In this document: piece by piece, positions 3,198-18,176 of the stretch | Layout of the letters: each line of letters opens with the position of its first letter | How positions within the stretch are numbered: position 1 is the stretch's first letter | Source of the DNA: Candidatus Velthaea sp. | GTDB taxonomy: Bacteria > Vulcanimicrobiota > Vulcanimicrobiia > Vulcanimicrobiales > Vulcanimicrobiaceae | DNA length: 31,421 bases | Reading direction: 5' to 3' | Assembly: GCA_050012475.1 (NCBI GenBank) | Contig: JBEKHC010000061.1 | Span: 1-31,421 of the forward strand | Translations under genes and position numbers: made by a program | The notes under the pieces: generated by a model | Told to the model about the DNA's origin: nothing | Databases searched by the model: none | The model's input: the letters and a program-made list of their open reading frames with translations, nothing else

Positions 3198-3940
3198 TGA
3201 GCGTGCCGCTGCTTTCGCTCGAGAACGTCACCAAACGCTTCGGCGCAGTGGAGGTCTTGCGCGGCATTACGCTGCAGGTCAGCGCGGGCGAAGCGGTTGC
3301 GATCGTCGGCGATAACGGCGCCGGCAAGTCGACGCTGATGAAGACAATCACCGGCGTGCACCGCCCGAACTCGGGACGGATCGTTTTCGACGGCACCGAC
3401 GTCACGGAGATGAGCACCGGGAACTCGCGCGAGCTTGGGATCGAGATGATCTATCAAGATCTCGCGCTGGCCAAGATGCAGGACGTCGCGTCGAATATCT
3501 TTCTCGGCCGCGAGCCGACGCACCGGTTGTTCGGCATCGTTCCGATCATCGATCGCGCGCGCATCGAGCGCGAATCCGAGGAGATGATTCGCCGGCTCGG
3601 TGCGCGCGTGCCGTCGGTACGCCAGCAAGTCGGACTCATGTCGGGCGGGCAGCAGCAGTCGGTCGCGATCGCCCGCGCGTTGACCTTCGACCCCAAACTC
3701 GTGATCATGGACGAGCCGACCGCGGCGCTGGCCGTCAAAGAGATCGAGCACGTTCTGGAACTCATTCGCACGTTGAGTGCGCGCGGGATCGCGGTCATCC
3801 TCATCAGCCACCGGCTCACCGACGTCTTTGCCGTCTGCGATCGGATCATCGCGCTGCGTCAGGGAACGGTCATCGCCGACGAACGAACGTCCCAAACGAG
3901 CATGAACGCGGTCGTCAGCCACATCGTCGGCGCGAGCTGA
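3197..3940 (+). CDS. Sugar ABC transporter ATP-binding protein (single ABC domain)
   Basis: Walker A GDNGAGKST, signature MSGGQQQ, Walker B LVIMDE, ISH switch; the ATG at 3197 overlaps the permease stop (TGATG). Confidence 0.93.
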   Translation: MSVPLLSLENVTKRFGAVEVLRGITLQVSAGEAVAIVGDNGAGKSTLMKTITGVHRPNSGRIVFDGTDVTEMSTGNSRELGIEMIYQDLALAKMQDVASNIFLGREPTHRLFGIVPIIDRARIERESEEMIRRLGARVPSVRQQVGLMSGGQQQSVAIARALTFDPKLVIMDEPTAALAVKEIEHVLELIRTLSARGIAVILISHRLTDVFAVCDRIIALRQGTVIADERTSQTSMNAVVSHIVGAS

Positions 3941-3973: not shown

Positions 3974-4402
3974 TCAGCTCAGCGGAAACTCGATGCGAAC
4001 GCCCTCGAATCGCGAGTAATCGCGGTCATGCGTGCACAGCGTTGCGCCGTGTTCGATGGCGCTTGCAGCAAGATCTGCATCCGGCGCAAGTGGACCGCGT
4101 GCCTGTGCCGCAATCGCGAGCTGCCTGAACAACTCCCAGTGGCGCTCGGTCGGTGCGAGCAAGACCACGTTGTCGCAAGCGAGCCATTCTTGAACTACGG
4201 TACATGCGTCGGCAACTGACAGCGGTTGCGGGAATATGCGGACGTTCGTCGTGATACGGACGTAAGCGAGAGCGGTCGAGAGCGCGATGCCGATCCGCTC
4301 CGGACCGTTGAACGCAGCGGTGAGCCAACGGCATGCGCGGCCATGGAGCGGATCGGCGTTGTTGTAAGCATAGATCAGCAAGTTGACGTCGACGATCTTC
4401 AT
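3974..4402 (-). CDS. vapC: VapC PIN-domain toxin
   Basis: N-terminal IVDVNLLIYA, DADLAASAIEHGATLCTHDRDY; ATGA overlap with the upstream antitoxin. Confidence 0.92.
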   Translation of the reverse strand: MKIVDVNLLIYAYNNADPLHGRACRWLTAAFNGPERIGIALSTALAYVRITTNVRIFPQPLSVADACTVVQEWLACDNVVLLAPTERHWELFRQLAIAAQARGPLAPDADLAASAIEHGATLCTHDRDYSRFEGVRIEFPLS

Positions 4403-4647
4403 CGTCGCGAACCGCCCTCCGCCTCATCGAGGAGTTCCTCGATATTGTCGTACGAAAGCCCGGGTCGAATCCCAAGGGAACGAGGTCGCACCTCGAAACG
4501 CTCGCCCTTTTTCGAGCGTTGGCTGATCTGCACCAAGCCCAAACGTAAGGTCTCGTTTACCACTACGCGGAAGGGCCGGCCGCTGCGCGCAGTTTCCGCG
4601 GCAAGCTTTGCCGCCACATCGTCGTCGAGAGTTAGGGTTGTTCGCAC
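4399..4647 (-). CDS. vapB: VapB-type ribbon-helix-helix antitoxin
   Basis: Starts (GTG)RTTLTLDDDV, typical of RHH VapB; acidic C-terminus; GTG at 4647 lies 6 nt after a -10 box, so the longer ORF-track start at 4884 is not used. Confidence 0.88.
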   Translation of the reverse strand: MRTTLTLDDDVAAKLAAETARSGRPFRVVVNETLRLGLVQISQRSKKGERFEVRPRSLGIRPGLSYDNIEELLDEAEGGSRR

Positions 4648-4682
4648 ATCTTGATGATAAAAAAGCAACATCAAGATGTCAA
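4646..4682 (-). promoter_or_regulatory. vapBC sigma70 promoter overlapped by an 11-bp inverted repeat (likely VapBC operator)
   Basis: Minus strand TTGACA (4682-4677), 17 bp spacer, TATCAT (4659-4654); perfect inverted repeat ACATCTTGATG (4646-4656) / CATCAAGATGT (4669-4679). Confidence 0.85.
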
Positions 4683-4811
4683 GAGAACGACTCGTTTCCT
4701 CTTTAACAAGTGCGCCGCGTCGTAGGCGGCGCGCAGTCGCTGCCGGAAGGCTCGACGGTCGACGGCGGCAAGGTTCGCGCGCGGATGCGTTTCCGTCGCA
4801 CGTTTGCGGCA

Positions 4812-4841
4812 TTGACGCTGGCGGTCTGCACGTGCTACAGT
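4812..4841 (+). promoter_or_regulatory. sigma70-type promoter of Cys leader 1
   Basis: TTGACG (4812-4817), 18 bp spacer, extended -10 TGc-TACAGT (4836-4841); the ATG follows after 7 nt. Confidence 0.75.
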
Positions 4842-4848
4842 CCTTGCG

Positions 4849-4917
4849 ATGTCCCACCGAGCTTTCGCATGTCGATGCTGTCACTGTCTGGCGCTCACCC
4901 GAAGCCGGTCGAGTTAG
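4849..4917 (+). CDS. Putative leaderless Cys-rich leader peptide 1 (MSHRAFACRCCHCLALTRSRSS)
   Basis: 22-codon ORF starting at the predicted +1; four Cys in six codons (TGT CGA TGC TGT CAC TGT); followed by a terminator; paralogous element at 9668-9739. Confidence 0.8.
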   Translation: MSHRAFACRCCHCLALTRSRSS

Positions 4918-4944
4918 GCGCGTCCTCGTGTAGTAACGGTTCGC

Positions 4945-4982
4945 CAGCGCCTCTCGTCCGCCGACGAGGGGCGTTGTTCTTT
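4945..4982 (+). terminator. Attenuator terminator 1
   Basis: Stem CAGCGCCTCTCGTC, loop CGCC, stem GACGAGGGGCGTTG (14 bp including 2 G-U), followed by TTCTTT. Confidence 0.8.
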
Positions 4983-4999
4983 ATGTGATGTCGATTGGC

Positions 5000-5070
5000 G
5001 GCCATATAGCCAAGTGGTAAGGCTGGAGCCTGCAAAGCTCCGATCGCGGGTTCGACTCCCTCTATGGCCT
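5000..5070 (+). tRNA. tRNA-Cys (GCA), CCA not encoded
   Basis: Cloverleaf: acceptor GGCCATA/TATGGCC plus U73, D-arm GCC-AAGTGGTAA-GGC, anticodon arm GGAGC-CTGCAAA-GCTCC, T-arm GCGGG-TTCGACT-CCCTC (one C-U mismatch). Confidence 0.93.
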
Positions 5071-5146
5071 TTTCTCGATCATCGTCGTGCAACATCGATC
5101 CGACGCCGTCGCGGGCACGGTGCATCCGACAAGAAGCAAAGTACGT

Positions 5147-6925
5147 ATGAGTTTTCGCGCCAACGCACGTTTCAAAGCTGATTGGAGTACGGTGCGCAGC
5201 GACGTCATCGCGGGTGCGACGGTCGCCGCGATCGCGGTCCCGCAGGCGATTGCCTATGCGCTCATTGCGGGCGTCGATCCGCGTTACGGTCTGTATTCGG
5301 CCGTGGTGATAACGATCGTCGCTTCACTGCTGGGCTCGTCGTCGCACCTCATCAACGGGCCGACAAACGCGATCTCGCTCTTGGTCTTCGGCGCACTGGC
5401 TTCTTTTGCGGGGCACGTCGATGCCTACGAGGCATTGTTTCTGCTCGGAATCATCGCGGGATCCATCCAGATCCTCATCGCGGTATTCAAACTCGGCGAT
5501 TTGACGCGCTACGTCTCGGAATCGGTGATTCTCGGCTTCATGGCGGGCGCCGGACTGCTGATCGCGGTAGGGCAAATCGGGAACTTCGTCGGTGCCGCGA
5601 AGAAGGGAACCGGGGATCAGTCGGTTCTCATGAATACGTGGTTGACGCTCAGCGGCGGGACGTTCGATCCGCGTTCGATCGGTTTGGGCATCGGGACGAT
5701 CGTGGTCGTGCTGCTGCTGCACAAGCTGATAGTCAAACACAAGCTTCCGCGCGTCGATATGCTCGCAGGCTTGATCCTCGCTTCATTGGCGGCAGCGTAT
5801 TTCGGCTGGTCGTCTCCGGCATCCAGCGGCAAGACGCTCGTTTCGGTGGTGGGGACGGTTCCCGCCGCGCTGCCGGCATTTCACATCCCGCGAATCGATT
5901 TGGCCTGGTTTGGGCGGTTGATCACGGGAGCCGTTGCGATTGCTCTCCTCGGTTTGCTCGAGGCGCTGGCGGTAGCCAAGTCGATCGCCACCTACACGCG
6001 CCAACCCCTCGACTATAACCGCCAATGCCTTGCCGAGGGCGTCGGCAATCTCGTCGGCGGCTTCTTTCAGGCCTTGCCCGGTTCGGGATCGTTGACGCGT
6101 TCGGCAATCAACTATCAGGCCGGTGCGGTGACGCGCGCGTCCGGCATCTACTCAGGAATCATCGTCGCGGTGGTCGTCCTCTTGCTCGGACCCTACGCCC
6201 GTTTCATCCCGAAATCCGTGTTGGCCGGACTGCTGTTCATTACCGCGGCGCGGTTGATCGACTGGAAAAGACTCGCGTACGCGATTCGGGCCTCCCGGTT
6301 TGATGCAATCCTCGTAGCCGCCACGGCTTTCACCGCTATTTTCATCGATGTCGAGGATTCGATCCTCGTCGGCGTGGCGCTGTCGATTCTGCTCTTCGTT
6401 CCGCGAGCTTCGAAACCCGGAATGCGTGAACTCATCGTCACCCCGGAAGGGGTGGTGCGCGAACGCAGGCCCGGCGAGGAGCGTGTGAAAGCGTTGCTCA
6501 TTTACGACTTGGAAGGTGAGCTGTTTTTCGGAGCGGCGCCCGAACTGTCGCGCTATTTGCGCGAGATTGTCGAAAATGCCGATCGCGCGAGCATCCGGTA
6601 CGTCGTGCTGCGCTTGCGGCGGGCTCGGCATCCGGACGTCGTGGCGGTCGAGCTGCTGGAGCACTTCCTGCGCGATGCGGAGAGCCACGGCGTTACTGTC
6701 CTGCTTGCTGGGGTTCGTCCCGACTTCGTTCGAATCTTGAAGAACGTTCGTCTCGACCGCTGGTTTCCGGCGGATCGAATTTTTCCCGAAGAAGATGAGC
6801 CCTTCTCAGCGACGCTGCATGCCGTTCGTCGCGCCAACGAGCTGGCAAACAAGGCTGATTCGGAACACCAAAGCGATTCTCGGATTCCCGGCGACGAAAG
6901 GGATCCAGTCTACTATCTGGTTTAA
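5147..6925 (+). CDS. SulP/SLC26 family anion (sulfate) transporter with STAS domain
   Basis: D..AGATVAAIAVPQAIAYALIAGV.PRYGLYS, GSSSHLINGPT, GSGSLTRSAIN, C-terminal STAS (GELFFGAA). ATG at 5147 preferred over GTG at 5087. Confidence 0.92.
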   Translation: MSFRANARFKADWSTVRSDVIAGATVAAIAVPQAIAYALIAGVDPRYGLYSAVVITIVASLLGSSSHLINGPTNAISLLVFGALASFAGHVDAYEALFLLGIIAGSIQILIAVFKLGDLTRYVSESVILGFMAGAGLLIAVGQIGNFVGAAKKGTGDQSVLMNTWLTLSGGTFDPRSIGLGIGTIVVVLLLHKLIVKHKLPRVDMLAGLILASLAAAYFGWSSPASSGKTLVSVVGTVPAALPAFHIPRIDLAWFGRLITGAVAIALLGLLEALAVAKSIATYTRQPLDYNRQCLAEGVGNLVGGFFQALPGSGSLTRSAINYQAGAVTRASGIYSGIIVAVVVLLLGPYARFIPKSVLAGLLFITAARLIDWKRLAYAIRASRFDAILVAATAFTAIFIDVEDSILVGVALSILLFVPRASKPGMRELIVTPEGVVRERRPGEERVKALLIYDLEGELFFGAAPELSRYLREIVENADRASIRYVVLRLRRARHPDVVAVELLEHFLRDAESHGVTVLLAGVRPDFVRILKNVRLDRWFPADRIFPEEDEPFSATLHAVRRANELANKADSEHQSDSRIPGDERDPVYYLV

Positions 6926-6941
6926 AAAAGCGATTGCTGCA

Positions 6942-7298
6942 TTACGTGCGGTAGGTTTGGGACGCAGCGATCGCTTGCAGCAATCCGTCGAGCAGCCCGG
7001 GGAACAACTCGTCGATGAGATCGCGGCGCAGCCACATGATCTTCTTGCGCCCCTCGTAGCGCGCTTTGATCAAGCCCGCCTCGCGCAGCACCTTGAAGTG
7101 ATGGGTGAGGTTCTGCTTGCTGCCCATGCCCAAGAAATCGAAGGGACACTGCTCGTTCTGTTCGGCCAGCCGCCGGACGATCTCGAGTCGCGTCGGATCA
7201 CTGAGCGCCGAAAGGATCCCGTAGATGGTGATGTCTTCGCGCTCCGGGTACCAAAGCGCACGTGGGGTGAGGTCGGAAGAATCGTTCTCGGCAGCCAT
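6942..7298 (-). CDS. ArsR/SmtB family transcriptional regulator
   Basis: LSALSDPTRLEIV...SKQNLTHHFKVLREAGLI...EGR winged-helix motif. Confidence 0.9.
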   Translation of the reverse strand: MAAENDSSDLTPRALWYPEREDITIYGILSALSDPTRLEIVRRLAEQNEQCPFDFLGMGSKQNLTHHFKVLREAGLIKARYEGRKKIMWLRRDLIDELFPGLLDGLLQAIAASQTYRT

Positions 7299-7351
7299 TG
7301 ACAGTAAAACATCCCTTGTACTATAATTAGTACAAGATGTATTGTACTATA
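7298..7351 (+). promoter_or_regulatory. Consensus sigma70 promoter with a palindromic operator over the -10 box
   Basis: TTGACA (7298-7303), 18 bp spacer, TATAAT (7322-7327); inverted repeat CTTGTACTA-taat-TAGTACAAG (7315-7336); extra half-site TTGTACTATA (7342-7351). Confidence 0.8.
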
Positions 7352-7723
7352 TCTGCCGGGACGGTGTCCACCGGCCTCGACGACGACGCGCGTTCGGCCT
7401 ATCAGCATTTTCGGCGCCAAGCTCGGGCGCTCGGCACGATTTCGAGTTCGTTCGACGCGCTCGCGCTGGTCGTGACGGCGGCCTATTTGGAAGCGCTGGC
7501 GCGCCCGAGTTACGCGGCCTGGGCGATGCTCGTTCGGCGCGCCGCTGTGTTCGCGCAGCGGGCACGCGCGCTGCGCACGATCGTTGCTTTCGACGTCCGG
7601 GAGCGCGAAGCGCTGGATTTCTTCGAGGCAATCGTGCGCGAAAACGCCGACTTGCTGATCGTGCACCAAACGCTCGCGACCCCGAGTAACTTGGACGCGC
7701 CGCAGCGTGCGTTGGTCTCATAG
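7337..7723 (+). CDS. Hypothetical protein, divergent from arsR
   Basis: 128-aa helical-looking ORF filling the gap between the consensus promoter and the convergent desaturase gene; no family recognised; start uncertain. Confidence 0.55.
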   Translation: MYCTISAGTVSTGLDDDARSAYQHFRRQARALGTISSSFDALALVVTAAYLEALARPSYAAWAMLVRRAAVFAQRARALRTIVAFDVREREALDFFEAIVRENADLLIVHQTLATPSNLDAPQRALVS

Positions 7724-7733
7724 CTGGCGGTTG

Positions 7734-8693
7734 TCAACGTGCGGTGAGCTGTTCTGCGGCCGGCGTGCCGCAAGCAGCGTCCGCGTTGGGGTCGAAGCGC
7801 GCACCGCTGGCCGCTGTCCGTACCAGCCGATCGAAAGGGCGCCAGAGCCACGAGCGCGCGATTTGCCGGTACCCGCCGGCGTACGTCACGCCCTGCCGGG
7901 GACGAGCGCTCTGACGGGCGTGCCAATAAGCCGGAATCTCATACCAGGGAAGGGTTGGGCGTTCGTGGTGCGTCGCGTGGAAATTGTTATTGAGAAAAAG
8001 CAGCGAAAGGGCGCTTCGGCTCACGACGGTGGCGGTGCGGTCAGCCGGATTTTCGGCGGCGCGATGTTCCACGAACGAACGAAGGAGGCTCAGTGACGCC
8101 GCGGGATACGCGATGACGACAAGGTACATGACGGGGGCCACGCCGGTGACTGCGTCGAGAAACCACAAAACGCACGCGCTTGCCGCGAGGTGCCGGATCC
8201 ACAACAGCGCGTGCGCGGTGTCGCCCGCGCAGATGAGGCGAAGCTCGCGCACGTAGGCCCGTCCCACGACGAGCGCCGGTCCGATGAGCAGGCGCCCGGC
8301 CAGCGTTTGGTTTGCCAGGTACAGTGCGCCCAGGGCGCTCGGCATCGCGGACCACGCTTCGGGCTCGACGTAAAAGCTTTCCGGATCTGCCGGCCCGGTA
8401 AGTTCGCGCACCGCGTGATGCCGGAGGTGCTCGCGCCGGTACAACTCGTAGGGAAACCAGATGCCCAGCGGCGGAGAGGCGATCAGCGTGCGCACCCGGC
8501 GCGGAACCCGCCGCATCGCGTGAATCGTCTCGTGCTGAAACGACGAGTGCCAAGCGGTGAGGTAGATTGCGAGCGGAACGGCGATCCACGGCGCCAATTG
8601 CCGATGCAAGAGCGCTACGACAAACCAGCCGCTGTAAATGAGCAGGGCAACGATCCAAGTCGGGCCTTCATACCGCTGCCAGCGAACCCTCAC
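7734..8693 (-). CDS. Membrane fatty acid desaturase-like (His-box di-iron) enzyme
   Basis: His boxes HSSFQHETIH, HLRHH, EH and HATHH, plus TM segments; the GTG overlaps the upstream stop (GTGA). Confidence 0.88.
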   Translation of the reverse strand: MRVRWQRYEGPTWIVALLIYSGWFVVALLHRQLAPWIAVPLAIYLTAWHSSFQHETIHAMRRVPRRVRTLIASPPLGIWFPYELYRREHLRHHAVRELTGPADPESFYVEPEAWSAMPSALGALYLANQTLAGRLLIGPALVVGRAYVRELRLICAGDTAHALLWIRHLAASACVLWFLDAVTGVAPVMYLVVIAYPAASLSLLRSFVEHRAAENPADRTATVVSRSALSLLFLNNNFHATHHERPTLPWYEIPAYWHARQSARPRQGVTYAGGYRQIARSWLWRPFDRLVRTAASGARFDPNADAACGTPAAEQLTAR

Positions 8694-9448
8694 GCGAGCA
8701 CCGCGTAGCCGAGCGCAGCCGCTTCGTTCTCGTGCTCCAAAAGCGCGCTATACCAGTCGGGTCTCGCGTGAGCGATGCTTGTGAGGTGCAGCGCGCGCCG
8801 CGCGTCGGCAAGCCTCGGATCCTCGCCGGCCGCGGCGAGCGCATCGTAGAGCAGCGTCTTGGCCCGCGAACCCGCCGCGCGCGGGACCACGAAGGGCGGC
8901 GTGGGGCTAGGCGCGGTAACCGCGAGGGTCCGAACGCGCGCTACGGCGTGCGGCCGGTGTTCGGCGAGCAATCGGAACGTGACGCAATCGATCGACGCAG
9001 CATCGGCGTTGCCGTTCGCGACGGCTTCAAGGCTTGCCGCGTGGCTGCCAGTGATGACGACCTGGCGAAAGAAGCGGCCGCGGCGCGCAAGCGGTGCAAC
9101 GAGGCGGCGCGGCAGGTTCATCCCGGTATTCGAGTCGCGTGCGTTTACGGCGAAACACGTGTCCCGCAAATCGTCCAGCCGGGCGTGTTTCGATTCCGAA
9201 GTCACCACGATGATCGCCCGGTGCGTCGTCCCCTCGCAGAACGGCACGTCATACTGCGGGGCCGCCACGACGTCGTGCGCCGTTCCCAGCGAGCGGATGA
9301 GCGGGTAGCCGCAGATCTGCGTCAACGGCACCTCGCCGTTAAAGCCGGCCGCGCGGGCGTTCGCGACCACGGCGCGCCAAAACCGCTCGTGCGCCTTGGC
9401 AAGCTCGGGAAAATCGTACATCGGAAAAGCAGCGTGCGTCGCAATCAT
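8690..9448 (-). CDS. PhnD/SsuA-fold substrate-binding-like protein without a signal peptide
   Basis: PMYD, QICGYP, N..DSNTG, TGSHAASL.AV..G.ADAASID motifs of the phosphonate-binding-like family; ATG at 9448 chosen because the ORF-track extension runs into the terminator/leader region. Confidence 0.82.
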   Translation of the reverse strand: MIATHAAFPMYDFPELAKAHERFWRAVVANARAAGFNGEVPLTQICGYPLIRSLGTAHDVVAAPQYDVPFCEGTTHRAIIVVTSESKHARLDDLRDTCFAVNARDSNTGMNLPRRLVAPLARRGRFFRQVVITGSHAASLEAVANGNADAASIDCVTFRLLAEHRPHAVARVRTLAVTAPSPTPPFVVPRAAGSRAKTLLYDALAAAGEDPRLADARRALHLTSIAHARPDWYSALLEHENEAAALGYAVLA

Positions 9449-9597
9449 CGGTGGCGTTGTCTTTCTTTGCCTTCGGAAAACGTCGCGTGGCAGATGACGC
9501 AGCTTGCACCGACGAGCTAAGGCAGCTCGTCGACGCGCGAATGCATCGCAAAACACAGCCCGGTCATGAGACCGAAATCTCGCGTGCCCGGACTCGG

Positions 9598-9638
9598 ACA
9601 AAAACAAAACGCCCCTCGTCGAGTCGACGAGGGACGTT
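9598..9638 (-). terminator. Attenuator terminator 2
   Basis: Minus strand AACGTCCCTCGTC-gactc-GACGAGGGGCGTT followed by TTGTTTTTGT; 3' arm identical to that of terminator 1. Confidence 0.85.
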
Positions 9639-9667
9639 ACGCAGACCGCTGCGCTACGAGCGCGGGA

Positions 9668-9739
9668 TCACGTGTCGAAGTCGACGGACTTTCGGAGAGG
9701 CCCGGTACAGCGACAGCAACGACATGACGGCGCGAACAT
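9668..9739 (-). CDS. Putative leaderless Cys-rich leader peptide 2 (MFAPSCRCCRCTGPLRKSVDFDT)
   Basis: 23-codon ORF starting 7 nt after the -10 box; TGT CGT TGC TGT CGC TGT; followed by terminator 2. Confidence 0.82.
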   Translation of the reverse strand: MFAPSCRCCRCTGPLRKSVDFDT

Positions 9740-9746
9740 CCGTCAA

Positions 9747-9776
9747 ACTTTAGCACAGGCCGAGCCGGTCAGTCAA
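9747..9776 (-). promoter_or_regulatory. sigma70-type promoter of Cys leader 2
   Basis: Minus strand TTGACT (9776-9771), 18 bp spacer, extended -10 TGc-TAAAGT (9752-9747); geometry identical to promoter 1. Confidence 0.78.
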
Positions 9777-9894
9777 CGACACGAAGTGCGGAAGGCCTCG
9801 GCACGGGCTTGGCAAACCCTCCCCGCACGCTCTACCGCCCGGGGCCGGTCTCGGCCCGGGAACGTTGCCTGCAGCCGCAATGCCGGAGGGTCCA

Positions 9895-10440
9895 ATGCCC
9901 CGAATTCCGCCGCTCGAACTCAGCGCCGCGCCGCCGGAGATACGCAAGCGCTACGCCGGCCAAATTCGCAAATATGGCCGCGTCACCAATATGAAGCGAA
10001 CGCTCGCGCACGAAGTGCCGGCGTACGACGCGCTGTTGACGTGGTACCCGCTGCGCGATCGGGTCGCGTCCTTTCTCGGCAATCGCGACGCCGATATCTT
10101 CGCCCATGCGATCTCGACCGAAAACGAGTGCGTCATCTGCTCGACGTTCTTCCGGCGGAGTTTTATCGAGGCCGGTGAGGATCCCGACCGTTGGACGCTC
10201 AACGATCGGCAAACGCTGCTCGTCGAGTATGGACGGCAGCTCGCGCGCGATCCCAAAGGCGTGAGCGATGCGCTCTATGAATCGCTGGCACGCGAATTCA
10301 CTCAGCCCCAGATCGTCGTGCTGACCGCTTTCGGCGGCTTGATGATTGCGACCAACGTCGTCAACGACGCGCTGCGCATCGATCTGGACGAAGAACTCGA
10401 CGCGTTTCGCGCGCCGTCCGTCGAGGCGGAACGCGCCTGA
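9895..10440 (+). CDS. AhpD/carboxymuconolactone decarboxylase-like protein with CxxC
   Basis: RBS GGAGG before the ATG at 9895; MPRIPPL start, ENECVIC motif, C-terminal DALYESLAREFTQPQIV.L.....M...N..NDAL.ID pattern. Confidence 0.78.
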   Translation: MPRIPPLELSAAPPEIRKRYAGQIRKYGRVTNMKRTLAHEVPAYDALLTWYPLRDRVASFLGNRDADIFAHAISTENECVICSTFFRRSFIEAGEDPDRWTLNDRQTLLVEYGRQLARDPKGVSDALYESLAREFTQPQIVVLTAFGGLMIATNVVNDALRIDLDEELDAFRAPSVEAERA

Positions 10441-17198: not shown

Positions 17199-18176
17199 AT
17201 GCAAACGCGAACGCTTGGAACCCAGGGGCTCAAAGTCGGCGCGATCGGGCTCGGCTGCATGGGCATGAGTTTCGCCTACGGCACGCCCAACGACCCGGAA
17301 TCGATCGCGACGATCCACCGCGCACTCGAACTCGGCGTGACGCTGCTCGACACGGCGGAGGTCTACGGCCCCTACACCAACGAACGCCTCGTCGGCCAAG
17401 CGATCAAAGGCCGGCGCGAAGGTGTTGTGATCGCGACCAAATTCGGCTTCCGCTTGGGCGCGAATCAGCCGCGCGGCGTCGACGGCACGCCGGCCAACGT
17501 CAAAAAAGTCGCCGACGAGTCGCTGCAGCGGCTGGGCATCGACGTCATCGATCTCTACTACCAGCATCGCCGCGATCCGGGCGTGCCGATCGAAGAAACG
17601 GTCGGCGCGATGAAGGAGCTGGTGCAAGCGGGGAAGGTTCGCTATCTGGGGTTGTCCGAGGTCGGGCCGGAAACGCTGACCCGGGCGAACGCGGTGCATC
17701 CGATCAGCGCGCTGCAAACCGAATACTCGCTGTGGGAACGCGGCGTCGAAGTCAGGGTTTTTCCGGTGTTGCGGGAACTGGGCATCGGCTTCGTTCCCTA
17801 TAGTCCGCTGGGGCGCGGCTTTCTCACCGGAGCGTTCGCGAATTCGAGCGAACTCGAAGGGGACGATTGGCGGCGCACCGTTCCGCGCTTCGATGAGGCG
17901 AATGCCGAAGCCAACGGGCGCGTCGTCGCCGTCGTCAAGCGCGTCGCCGGCAAGTACGCCGCGACGCCTGCTCAAATCGCGCTCGCGTGGGTGCTTGCCC
18001 AGGGCGACGACCTGGTTCCCATCCCCGGCACGAAGCGGCGCACGTATCTCGAGGAAAACCTGCGCGCGCAGGACGTGCACCTCGACACGGACGATCTCGC
18101 CGACCTCGACGGCGTCGCGGCGCTGGCCAGCGGCGCGCGCTATTCCGCGGAGATGATGGCGCTCAGCGAATCCTGA
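17199..18176 (+). CDS. Aldo/keto reductase
   Basis: [41 protein letters not shown]; the ATG lies 6 nt after TACGAT (likely leaderless). Confidence 0.95.

Follow-up and report, generated by a model that had tools for sequence, protein, structure and literature searches.

The window described here, the whole 31,421-nt stretch of Candidatus Velthaea sp. (Vulcanimicrobiaceae; GenBank assembly GCA_050012475.1, contig JBEKHC010000061.1), carries two short elements on opposite strands, each made up of a promoter-like site, a short open reading frame (ORF) with a cluster of Cys codons starting 7 nt farther on, and a terminator-like hairpin. Element 1, on the plus strand, is followed by an extra tRNA-Cys gene and a gene for a SulP-family anion permease (unit 1); element 2, on the minus strand, is followed by genes for a PhnD/SsuA-like substrate-binding protein and a fatty-acid-desaturase-like membrane protein (unit 2). 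These parts and the downstream genes are directly visible in the sequence (Table 1). Our analyses suggest, with a probability that we put at roughly 85%, that each element is a trp-style transcription attenuator read by the ribosome, which would sense charged tRNA-Cys.

Table 1. Positions of the features discussed (window coordinates unless a contig is named)
Feature	Position	Strand	Remarks
vapBC-type toxin-antitoxin pair	3974-4647	-	VapC above TIGR00028 cut-off, plus antitoxin; palindromic promoter region; divergent, just upstream of element 1
Promoter-like site, element 1 (putative)	4812..4841	+	-35 TTGACG (4812-4817), 18-nt spacer, extended -10 TACAGT (4836-4841)
Leader ORF 1	4849..4917	+	22 codons, ATG at 4849, four Cys codons at 4870-4887, stop ends at 4917; no room for a Shine-Dalgarno site
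Predicted antiterminator, element 1	4910..4956	+	4910-4921 (spans the stop codon) with 4947-4956 (terminator 5' arm); duplex -16.2 kcal/mol
Intrinsic-terminator-like hairpin, element 1	4945..4984	+	14 bp (4945-4976), -24.9 kcal/mol by folding, then U-tract
Extra tRNA-Cys(GCA), first cargo of element 1	5000..5070	+	59.7 bits; U73, no encoded CCA, one T-stem mismatch
SulP-family anion permease with STAS domain	5147..6925	+	PF00916 and PF01740; TIGR00815 best hit, below its cut-off; start codon predicted
ArsR-like gene and 128-aa ORF without family hits	6942-7723		Divergent; between units 1 and 2
Fatty-acid-desaturase-like membrane protein, second gene of unit 2	7734..8693	-	PF00487
PhnD/SsuA-like substrate-binding protein, first gene of unit 2	8690..9448	-	PF12974; below NCBIfam cut-offs; start codon predicted
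Intrinsic-terminator-like hairpin, element 2	9598..9638	-	14 bp (9638-9608), about -24 kcal/mol by folding, then U-tract
Leader ORF 2	9668..9739	-	23 codons, ATG at 9739, four Cys codons at 9724-9707, stop ends at 9668; predicted antiterminator weak
Promoter-like site, element 2 (putative)	9747..9776	-	-35 TTGACT (9776-9771), 18-nt spacer, extended -10 TAAAGT (9752-9747)
Peroxidase-related gene (AhpD-like, below cut-off)	9886-10440	+	Divergent from element 2
Leaders rich in Leu, Ile/Leu/Val, or Phe	C21:44920, C18:54337, C45 near 11010, C36:42979		Ahead of leuA, ilvC, ilvB, pheA-aroF

Architecture and paralogy of the two elements

Both elements stand where the initial annotation had placed them, and the common architecture that it described was recovered in the promoter, the ATG 7 nt past it, the peptide pattern CRCC(H/R)C with its consecutive Cys codons, and the lengths of 22 and 23 amino acids (MSHRAFACRCCHCLALTRSRSS and MFAPSCRCCRCTGPLRKSVDFDT); in both, the TGC of the extended -10 box lies within the 18-nt spacer and not after it, as had been set out. 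A gap of about 28 to 29 nt had been reported between stop codon and hairpin, which is right for element 2 (29 nt) and slightly off for element 1 (27 nt). The two hairpins do have in common a 13-nt 3' arm, as had been noted, while the U-tract ascribed to both is interrupted in element 1. Within the 5.36-Mb genome, neither the CRCC(H/R)C pattern nor the 13-nt arm is found outside these two elements, each of which has one copy. Folding of the leader regions gave z scores of -3.1 for element 1, which outdid 199 of 200 shuffles, and -3.8 for element 2, which outdid all 200. The two hairpins are the longest terminator-like stems between positions 3900 and 10500; that region holds five promoter-like sites (1.2 expected in shuffles), and two of the five precede the elements. 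That both ORFs are leaderless we infer solely from the distance between promoter and ATG; genome-wide, ATG counts at 6 to 10 nt past 155 consensus promoters were 12, 8, 8, 9, and 6, against mostly 0 to 5, and once 7, elsewhere.

Beyond the Cys core, an ungapped stretch of 36 bases has 24 in common between the elements, a match that none of 20,000 shuffles reached. Conservation thus extends past the functional parts, to which it had been thought confined; the peptides look unlike each other because a 1-nt indel shifts the frame. The pair scores 76, against a median of 24, and ranks third among the 210 pairs formed by 21 elements of the genome. Judged by these alignments, elements 1 and 2 are true paralogues, arisen by duplication within a genome-wide set. 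A dispersed repeat or mobile element was considered and rejected, given that the exact motifs occur only twice, that the median pairwise score is far below that of this pair, and that the copies stand at operon heads.

A leader that survives a frameshift is unlikely to work as a peptide. This bears on the possibility that the ORFs encode working Cys-rich peptides (for metal binding, sulfur storage, or as precursors of modified peptides) on short transcripts of their own, with the cargo expressed by leak-through or from other promoters. Each ORF does have a promoter and a terminator like a stand-alone gene, and CxCCxC clusters resemble metal-binding motifs, but what paralogues and orthologues preserve is Cys (and Met) alone, and they tolerate frameshifts; the same layout elsewhere carries Ile/Leu/Val, aromatic, or Met runs that fit the downstream pathway, the rare Cys codon TGT is favored, and the stretch from leader to cargo showed no further consensus promoter. 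We therefore regard working peptides as improbable.

A genome-wide set of Cys leaders

The pair had been proposed to define a local regulon; it belongs instead to a genome-wide set of 23 elements. In a scan of the 5.36-Mb genome (94% complete) for short ORFs starting 4 to 10 nt past a -10-like box, chosen without regard to Cys, 2107 ORFs were collected, 33 of which also had a -35 box and a terminator. At least three Cys codons were present in 15 of these 33, against 76 of 1781 ORFs with neither feature, and at least two in 21 of 33, against 257 of 1781. The count of 23 comprises elements with at least one Cys (21 have at least two), two of them added by a covariance model, and all share a layout of promoter, start codon 5 to 10 nt later, Cys-containing frame of 19 to 31 codons, and terminator. 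Seventeen lie on contig C39, two on C18, one each on C20 and C24, and two in the window; Cys-containing hits on C95 and C157 were excluded for mismatched geometry or lack of a -35 box, as was a 43-codon Met-rich ORF on C39 (C39:53847; 17847-17978 of the extracted locus L022). The latter, with 16 Met and 4 Cys codons followed by a hairpin, is better read as a small protein than as a leader.

Recognizable sulfur genes of the expected kinds (cys, ssu, and tau) stand in operons headed by 16 of the 23 elements, and copies scattered ahead of unrelated genes in the manner of a dispersed repeat were not borne out. The cargo includes cysE, cysH, cysI/sir, a sulfate-binding protein gene (sbp), ssuA (twice), ssuC with a TauD-family gene, sfnG, tauA-, tauC-, metQ-, and metN-like genes, metY, a cystine ABC transporter, an encapsulin with a cysteine desulfurase, and sulP, where the names tauA, tauC, ssuC, metQ, metN, and sulP denote best hits under the curated cut-off. 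One further element heads a gene whose product resembles, by eye only, cysteine/cystathionine synthase. The same layout with other codons, rich in Leu, Ile/Leu/Val, or Phe, precedes leuA, ilvC, ilvB, and pheA-aroF. The Cys set would likely coordinate sulfate assimilation, organosulfur scavenging, and Cys/Met synthesis, as judged from these gene assignments.

Conservation and held-out test in relatives

A search of 60 relatives for the promoter-plus-Cys pattern was unspecific, giving close to the control count outside a few genomes, and a covariance model trained on 46 elements was used instead. Among genomes of the same family it found a match in 68 of 72, among those of the same order in 4 of 5, and in another family of the class in 7 of 32, where most matches were weak; genomes flagged as unpublished are counted here, but no specific claim rests on them. 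The held-out sample consisted of 55 matches outside the training set, from 37 published genomes, out of 338 matches (19 returned as loci and 36 picked from 150 listed), with start codons assigned by a fixed rule. At least two Cys codons were found in 28 of the 55 leaders, and 25 of these 28 stood ahead of sulfur, Cys, or Met genes: six of PAPS reductase, three of sulfite reductase, three of Cys/Met pyridoxal phosphate enzymes, four of the SsuA family, one MetQ-like, two of CysA-like ATPases, and six of homoserine dehydrogenase, whose leaders were Met-rich besides having Cys in all six cases; the other three stood ahead of unknown genes. The remaining 27 leaders preceded 18 branched-chain operons, 4 aromatic operons, lysA, a cystathionine synthase gene (with a single Cys codon), and 3 unknown genes. 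All 18 branched-chain leaders had at least seven Ile/Leu/Val and fewer than two Cys codons, and all 4 aromatic leaders had at least four Phe/Tyr/Trp codons, with no aromatic operon among the leaders with at least two Cys. A model trained on Cys elements thus retrieves leaders whose codons fit four pathways.

Further leaders in relatives included one with ten Thr codons ahead of an unknown gene (G098), a Thr/Met leader ahead of a regulator-like gene (G076), and a two-Lys leader ahead of lysA (G086). Behind Cys leaders, DUF3034 genes were seen twice, together with genes for proteins of 489 and 476 amino acids without family hits (loci L199/G007, L202/G091, L134 at 4294-5763, and L210/G100); these are candidate sulfur-uptake proteins.

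It is hardly credible, against this background, that each element is an untranslated RNA switch, bound by a protein, a ligand, or uncharged tRNA, with the reading frame a by-product. The TGY-rich sequence could serve as a binding motif, and translation of the frame is a prediction, but the start codon keeps a fixed distance from the promoter and the codons track the pathway for four amino-acid groups. Rfam searches matched no family but tRNA in the window, and neither a T-box nor a SAM-I riboswitch was found in the 94%-complete genome (the SAM search scored 150 of 252 candidates).

Codon bias and predicted antiterminator pairing

Among the Cys codons of the leaders, 48 of 69 are TGT, compared with 1272 of 7719 in 1553 long genes, and other pyrimidine-ending two-codon sets in the same leaders end in T in 24 of 64 cases (Fisher p 0.00025). 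This synonymous preference for a rare codon points to decoding speed. The bias also speaks against a translated leader in which the nascent Cys/Arg-rich peptide itself would arrest the ribosome on sensing a ligand (metal, oxidant, or sulfide) in place of tRNA charging. Such arrest would suit the composition of the leaders (14% Arg and 16% Cys) and some redox-related cargo (OsmC-like, 1-Cys peroxiredoxin), but no peptide motif or spacing is conserved across 47 leaders, and we give it as little credence as an untranslated switch.

In the antiterminator test, the ribosome was represented as a mask on the Cys cluster, and pairing of the terminator 5' arm with the sequence around the stop codon was scored against dinucleotide shuffles. 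The mean z score was -1.75 for the elements of this genome (12 of 21 below -1.5) and -2.37 for held-out leaders with a located terminator (19 of 25 below -1.5), compared with -0.24 for control terminators (12 of 80 below -1.5), and mean arm pairing fell from 0.68 to 0.30 once the mask was moved to the stop codon. Element 1 scored -2.4, with 2 of 100 shuffles as good; under a codon-by-codon mask, its arm pairing persists as the ribosome advances and collapses once about 5 codons remain before the stop. In the orthologue of element 1 in relative G003, the antiterminator energy is equal (-16.2), a G-C pair has become A-U, and the 3' arm of the terminator is altered to fit, a paired change that represents one event only. 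Across the family, changes on both sides of the terminator stem were seen in 10 of 11 pairs, the structure having been drawn from the same sequences.

Proposed mechanism

Taken together, the genome scan, the held-out test, the codon bias, and the folding argue for the earlier proposal that these paralogues are cysteine-responsive transcription attenuators. The features of a classical attenuator that can be examined in sequence are all present as predicted parts, the antiterminator of element 2 aside. Transcription would start at the ATG or a few bases from it, and the transcript would be translated without a leader. With ample Cys-tRNA, the ribosome would reach the last codons and cover the stop region, so that the terminator forms and the transcript ends at about 135 nt. 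With scarce Cys-tRNA, the ribosome would stall at the Cys cluster, some 35 to 45 nt before the stop; the region of the stop codon would then be free to pair with the emerging 5' arm of the terminator, and the polymerase would read through. Element 1 would thus control the extra tRNA-Cys gene and a sulfate-type permease, and starvation, by yielding more tRNA-Cys, would ease the stalling and damp the sensor.

Several observations weigh against this reading. Six of the 23 elements head genes without a shown sulfur role: unit 2, a branched-chain-type ABC transporter, a corrinoid protein, an XRE regulator, a 2OG-Fe(II) oxygenase, and a FadL-like porin. The held-out genomes are kin, and several of their hits are orthologous to training sequences. 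Antiterminator pairing was no better than in shuffles for 3 of 21 elements (z above 0) and is weak in element 2 (z -1.3, 12 of 100 shuffles as good, direct duplex -6.5 kcal/mol). The absolute energy of arm pairing hardly distinguishes elements (-9.5 kcal/mol) from controls (-9.3 kcal/mol), the difference lying in the shuffle-relative score alone. Among extra tRNA-Cys genes of relatives, 3 of 10 had no leader found ahead of them: those in G023 (on a short gapped contig), G068, and G075 (a gene not called by ARAGORN). Finally, the finished terminator was the more stable structure at equilibrium in two of the three elements computed, and the switch would therefore have to be kinetic rather than one of equilibrium.

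tRNA-Cys genes as cargo

The predicted tRNA-Cys gene behind element 1 has the cloverleaf, the GCA anticodon, and U73, as compared with the commonly known identity elements of tRNA-Cys. It is unlikely to be an integration-site duplicate, as it is of full length and differs throughout from the housekeeping copy. The genome has three tRNA-Cys genes, the others being the housekeeping copy, after tRNA-Gly, and a copy on C39, 115 nt past the last gene of the ssuC operon headed by a Cys leader (3828-3900, minus strand, of locus L024); the latter has C33 instead of U and may be impaired.

Searches of 120 relatives gave one tRNA-Cys match in 89, two in 11, and none in 20, and the extra copy was taken from 10 of the 11 relatives with two (one unpublished genome was excluded). 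Of these 10 extra genes, 5 directly follow a Cys leader and its terminator (G003, G007, G033, G091, and G100, from five genera; G007 and G033 are closely similar, and one promoter box is imperfect in three of the five), and in two more (G093 and G101) one gene lies between. None of nine housekeeping copies had such a leader; chance Cys-containing ORFs, with neither promoter nor terminator, preceded four of them. A named record outside these counts, L036, contains both a leader-tRNA-Cys-sulP unit and a leader-PhnD-like unit. In G033 and G091 the next long ORF past the tRNA is on the opposite strand, and the tRNA-Cys gene looks like the sole cargo. In the seven named records with the closest SulP proteins, of which three are labeled Vulcanimicrobiota (Eremiobacterota; 74 to 75% identity) and one Terriglobia (73%), leaders were seen only in those labeled Vulcanimicrobiota, and a strict scan found none ahead of the SulP homologues in four records of other phyla.

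A tRNA is untranslated, and control of such cargo must therefore act on transcription or RNA stability. This bears on translational control of the mycobacterial type, in which the Shine-Dalgarno site would be occluded and transcription would not be terminated. It is the sole mechanism tested for leaderless polycysteine ORFs (10.1101/834739), and the Cys tracts could form duplexes with the regions of the following starts, though weak and bulged ones (-8.4 and -11.3 kcal/mol, with no control). Besides the tRNA cargo of element 1 and the opposite-strand ORFs of G033 and G091, however, a covarying, U-tailed hairpin follows every element, and in both units the start codons lie about 160 to 170 nt beyond the hairpin. 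We consider translational control here very improbable.

Returning to transcription attenuation, we find it rather probable, with distinctly less confidence than for the mechanism of the single elements, that one portable cassette (promoter, leaderless sensor ORF, antiterminator, and terminator) runs the amino-acid regulation of this lineage, that its Cys version forms a 23-operon sulfur regulon, and that a spare tRNA-Cys gene, often as sole cargo, has come under its own sensor in a closed feedback loop.

Unit 2 and neighboring genes

The two units had been described as convergent; the ArsR-like gene and the 128-aa ORF, with promoters of their own, stand between them. One of these promoters, a perfect consensus at 7298-7327, overlaps a palindrome at 7315-7336, and the 128-aa ORF starts 9 nt past its -10 box. 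Homologues of the desaturase-like gene occur in 3 of 120 relatives, in G003 and G101 behind Cys leaders and in G002 near a TauD-family gene, where no leader was found nearby. More distant homologues on plasmid records (39 to 43% identity or less) had sulfur-related neighbors in four of the five records read, including an encapsulin cysteine desulfurase, rhodanese-like proteins, soxC, and msuE, and two of the five kept the PhnD-like partner. A role for unit 2 in sulfur scavenging is a reasonable guess from gene neighborhood only; our literature search found no paper on the desaturase/PhnD pair in sulfur starvation. A peroxidase-related gene lies divergent from element 2, and a CMD-domain gene was also seen near the desaturase homologue in Variovorax.

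The vapBC-type pair lies next to element 1; the equivalent place in G003 holds a tRNA-Thr gene. VapC4 of Mycobacterium tuberculosis cuts tRNA-Cys (PMC13096801).

Seven sequencing runs from six studies, labeled soil or peat metagenome, hold at least half of the window, and one of them may be the sample of origin. One study has two DNA runs in which the match of a contig begins at window position 4807, just before the -35 box of element 1, while the sequence upstream of it differs, which would fit a second context for the cassette; DNA runs, which cover element 1 in part, list no variant within it and one change just ahead of the start of element 2. Contigs from two RNA runs of one study cover parts of the sulP, desaturase-like, and PhnD-like genes and not the leaders; transcript start, end, strand, and level are not readable from them.

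Relation to known attenuators and significance

Sensing of Cys by ribosome stalling is already established; a predicted terminator output at regulon scale and a tRNA gene as cargo set the present elements apart. The closest comparison in sensing is with the polycysteine leaderless short ORFs of mycobacteria, the "Cys ribulon" of Canestrari et al. (10.1101/834739), which comprises six loci sharing stalling as a signal and acts on translation through occlusion of the Shine-Dalgarno site, a transcriptional reporter being insensitive to cysteine. Short ORFs with clustered Cys codons, leaderless there and putatively so here, head several sulfur operons in both cases, but in mycobacteria the Cys codons lie at the 3' end of the ORF, whereas here they lie 7 to 17 codons before the stop, and here there are 23 loci, with a terminator-like hairpin at each and a tRNA gene among the cargo. 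The present elements are thus not strictly members of that ribulon, being alike in sensing and not in output. Two further sources treat Cys attenuation as a mycobacterial system (PMC13236596 and PMC13096801).

In their predicted output, the elements resemble Escherichia coli trpL and Salmonella hisL, as commonly described and in part as drawn in Fig. 1 of 10.1101/834739, with an ORF rich in the end-product amino acid, a competing antiterminator, and a terminator with a U-tract. Those ORFs are preceded by a 5' leader that contains a Shine-Dalgarno site, and for each amino acid they control one or two operons, whereas here the ORF lies 5 to 10 nt past the -10 box, the amino acid is Cys, and there are 23 copies. 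The uORFC-8-2 motif upstream of cysS in Rhodobacterales, a predicted upstream ORF with tandem Cys codons and an intrinsic terminator (PMC8632094), has the same proposed mechanism; as described there, it differs in having cysS as its single target, in its phylum, in being a prediction only, and in not being called leaderless. Deinococcus deserti has 14 putative leaderless attenuator peptides whose mapped starts coincide with the ATG or adjoin it, among them a two-Cys peptide ahead of cysS and leaders of ilvB, leuA, and DAHP synthase (PMC4007540); the two-Cys peptide is the sole Cys leader of the 14, and the targets in the table of that paper are synthetase and biosynthetic genes, with neither a sulfur-scavenging regulon nor a tRNA gene. 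Short ORFs with Cys runs also precede cys operons in Actinobacteria (Seliverstov et al., PMC1262725), where conserved terminator hairpins like those present here are stated to be lacking.

Within a literature search that left most subscription journals outside, no paper was found that describes a Cys regulon of the terminator type, a tRNA gene controlled by a leader-peptide attenuator, or attenuation in Eremiobacterota. T-boxes are predicted ahead of tRNA genes in some Firmicutes, which the literature search did not confirm.

The weight of these findings is limited by the established sensing principle and by the sequence-based nature of the evidence. If the reading is true, a terminator-type cysteine attenuator, which in the literature examined is only predicted for single cysS genes, would operate at the scale of a whole regulon, and a tRNA gene would be regulated by ribosome stalling at its own codons. 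The cassettes, of about 170 nt, are self-contained and hence testable in a laboratory host. The amino acid of a leader would also predict the pathway of unannotated cargo, making the PhnD-like/desaturase-like pair, DUF3034 proteins, and the FadL-like porin candidate sulfur-scavenging proteins.

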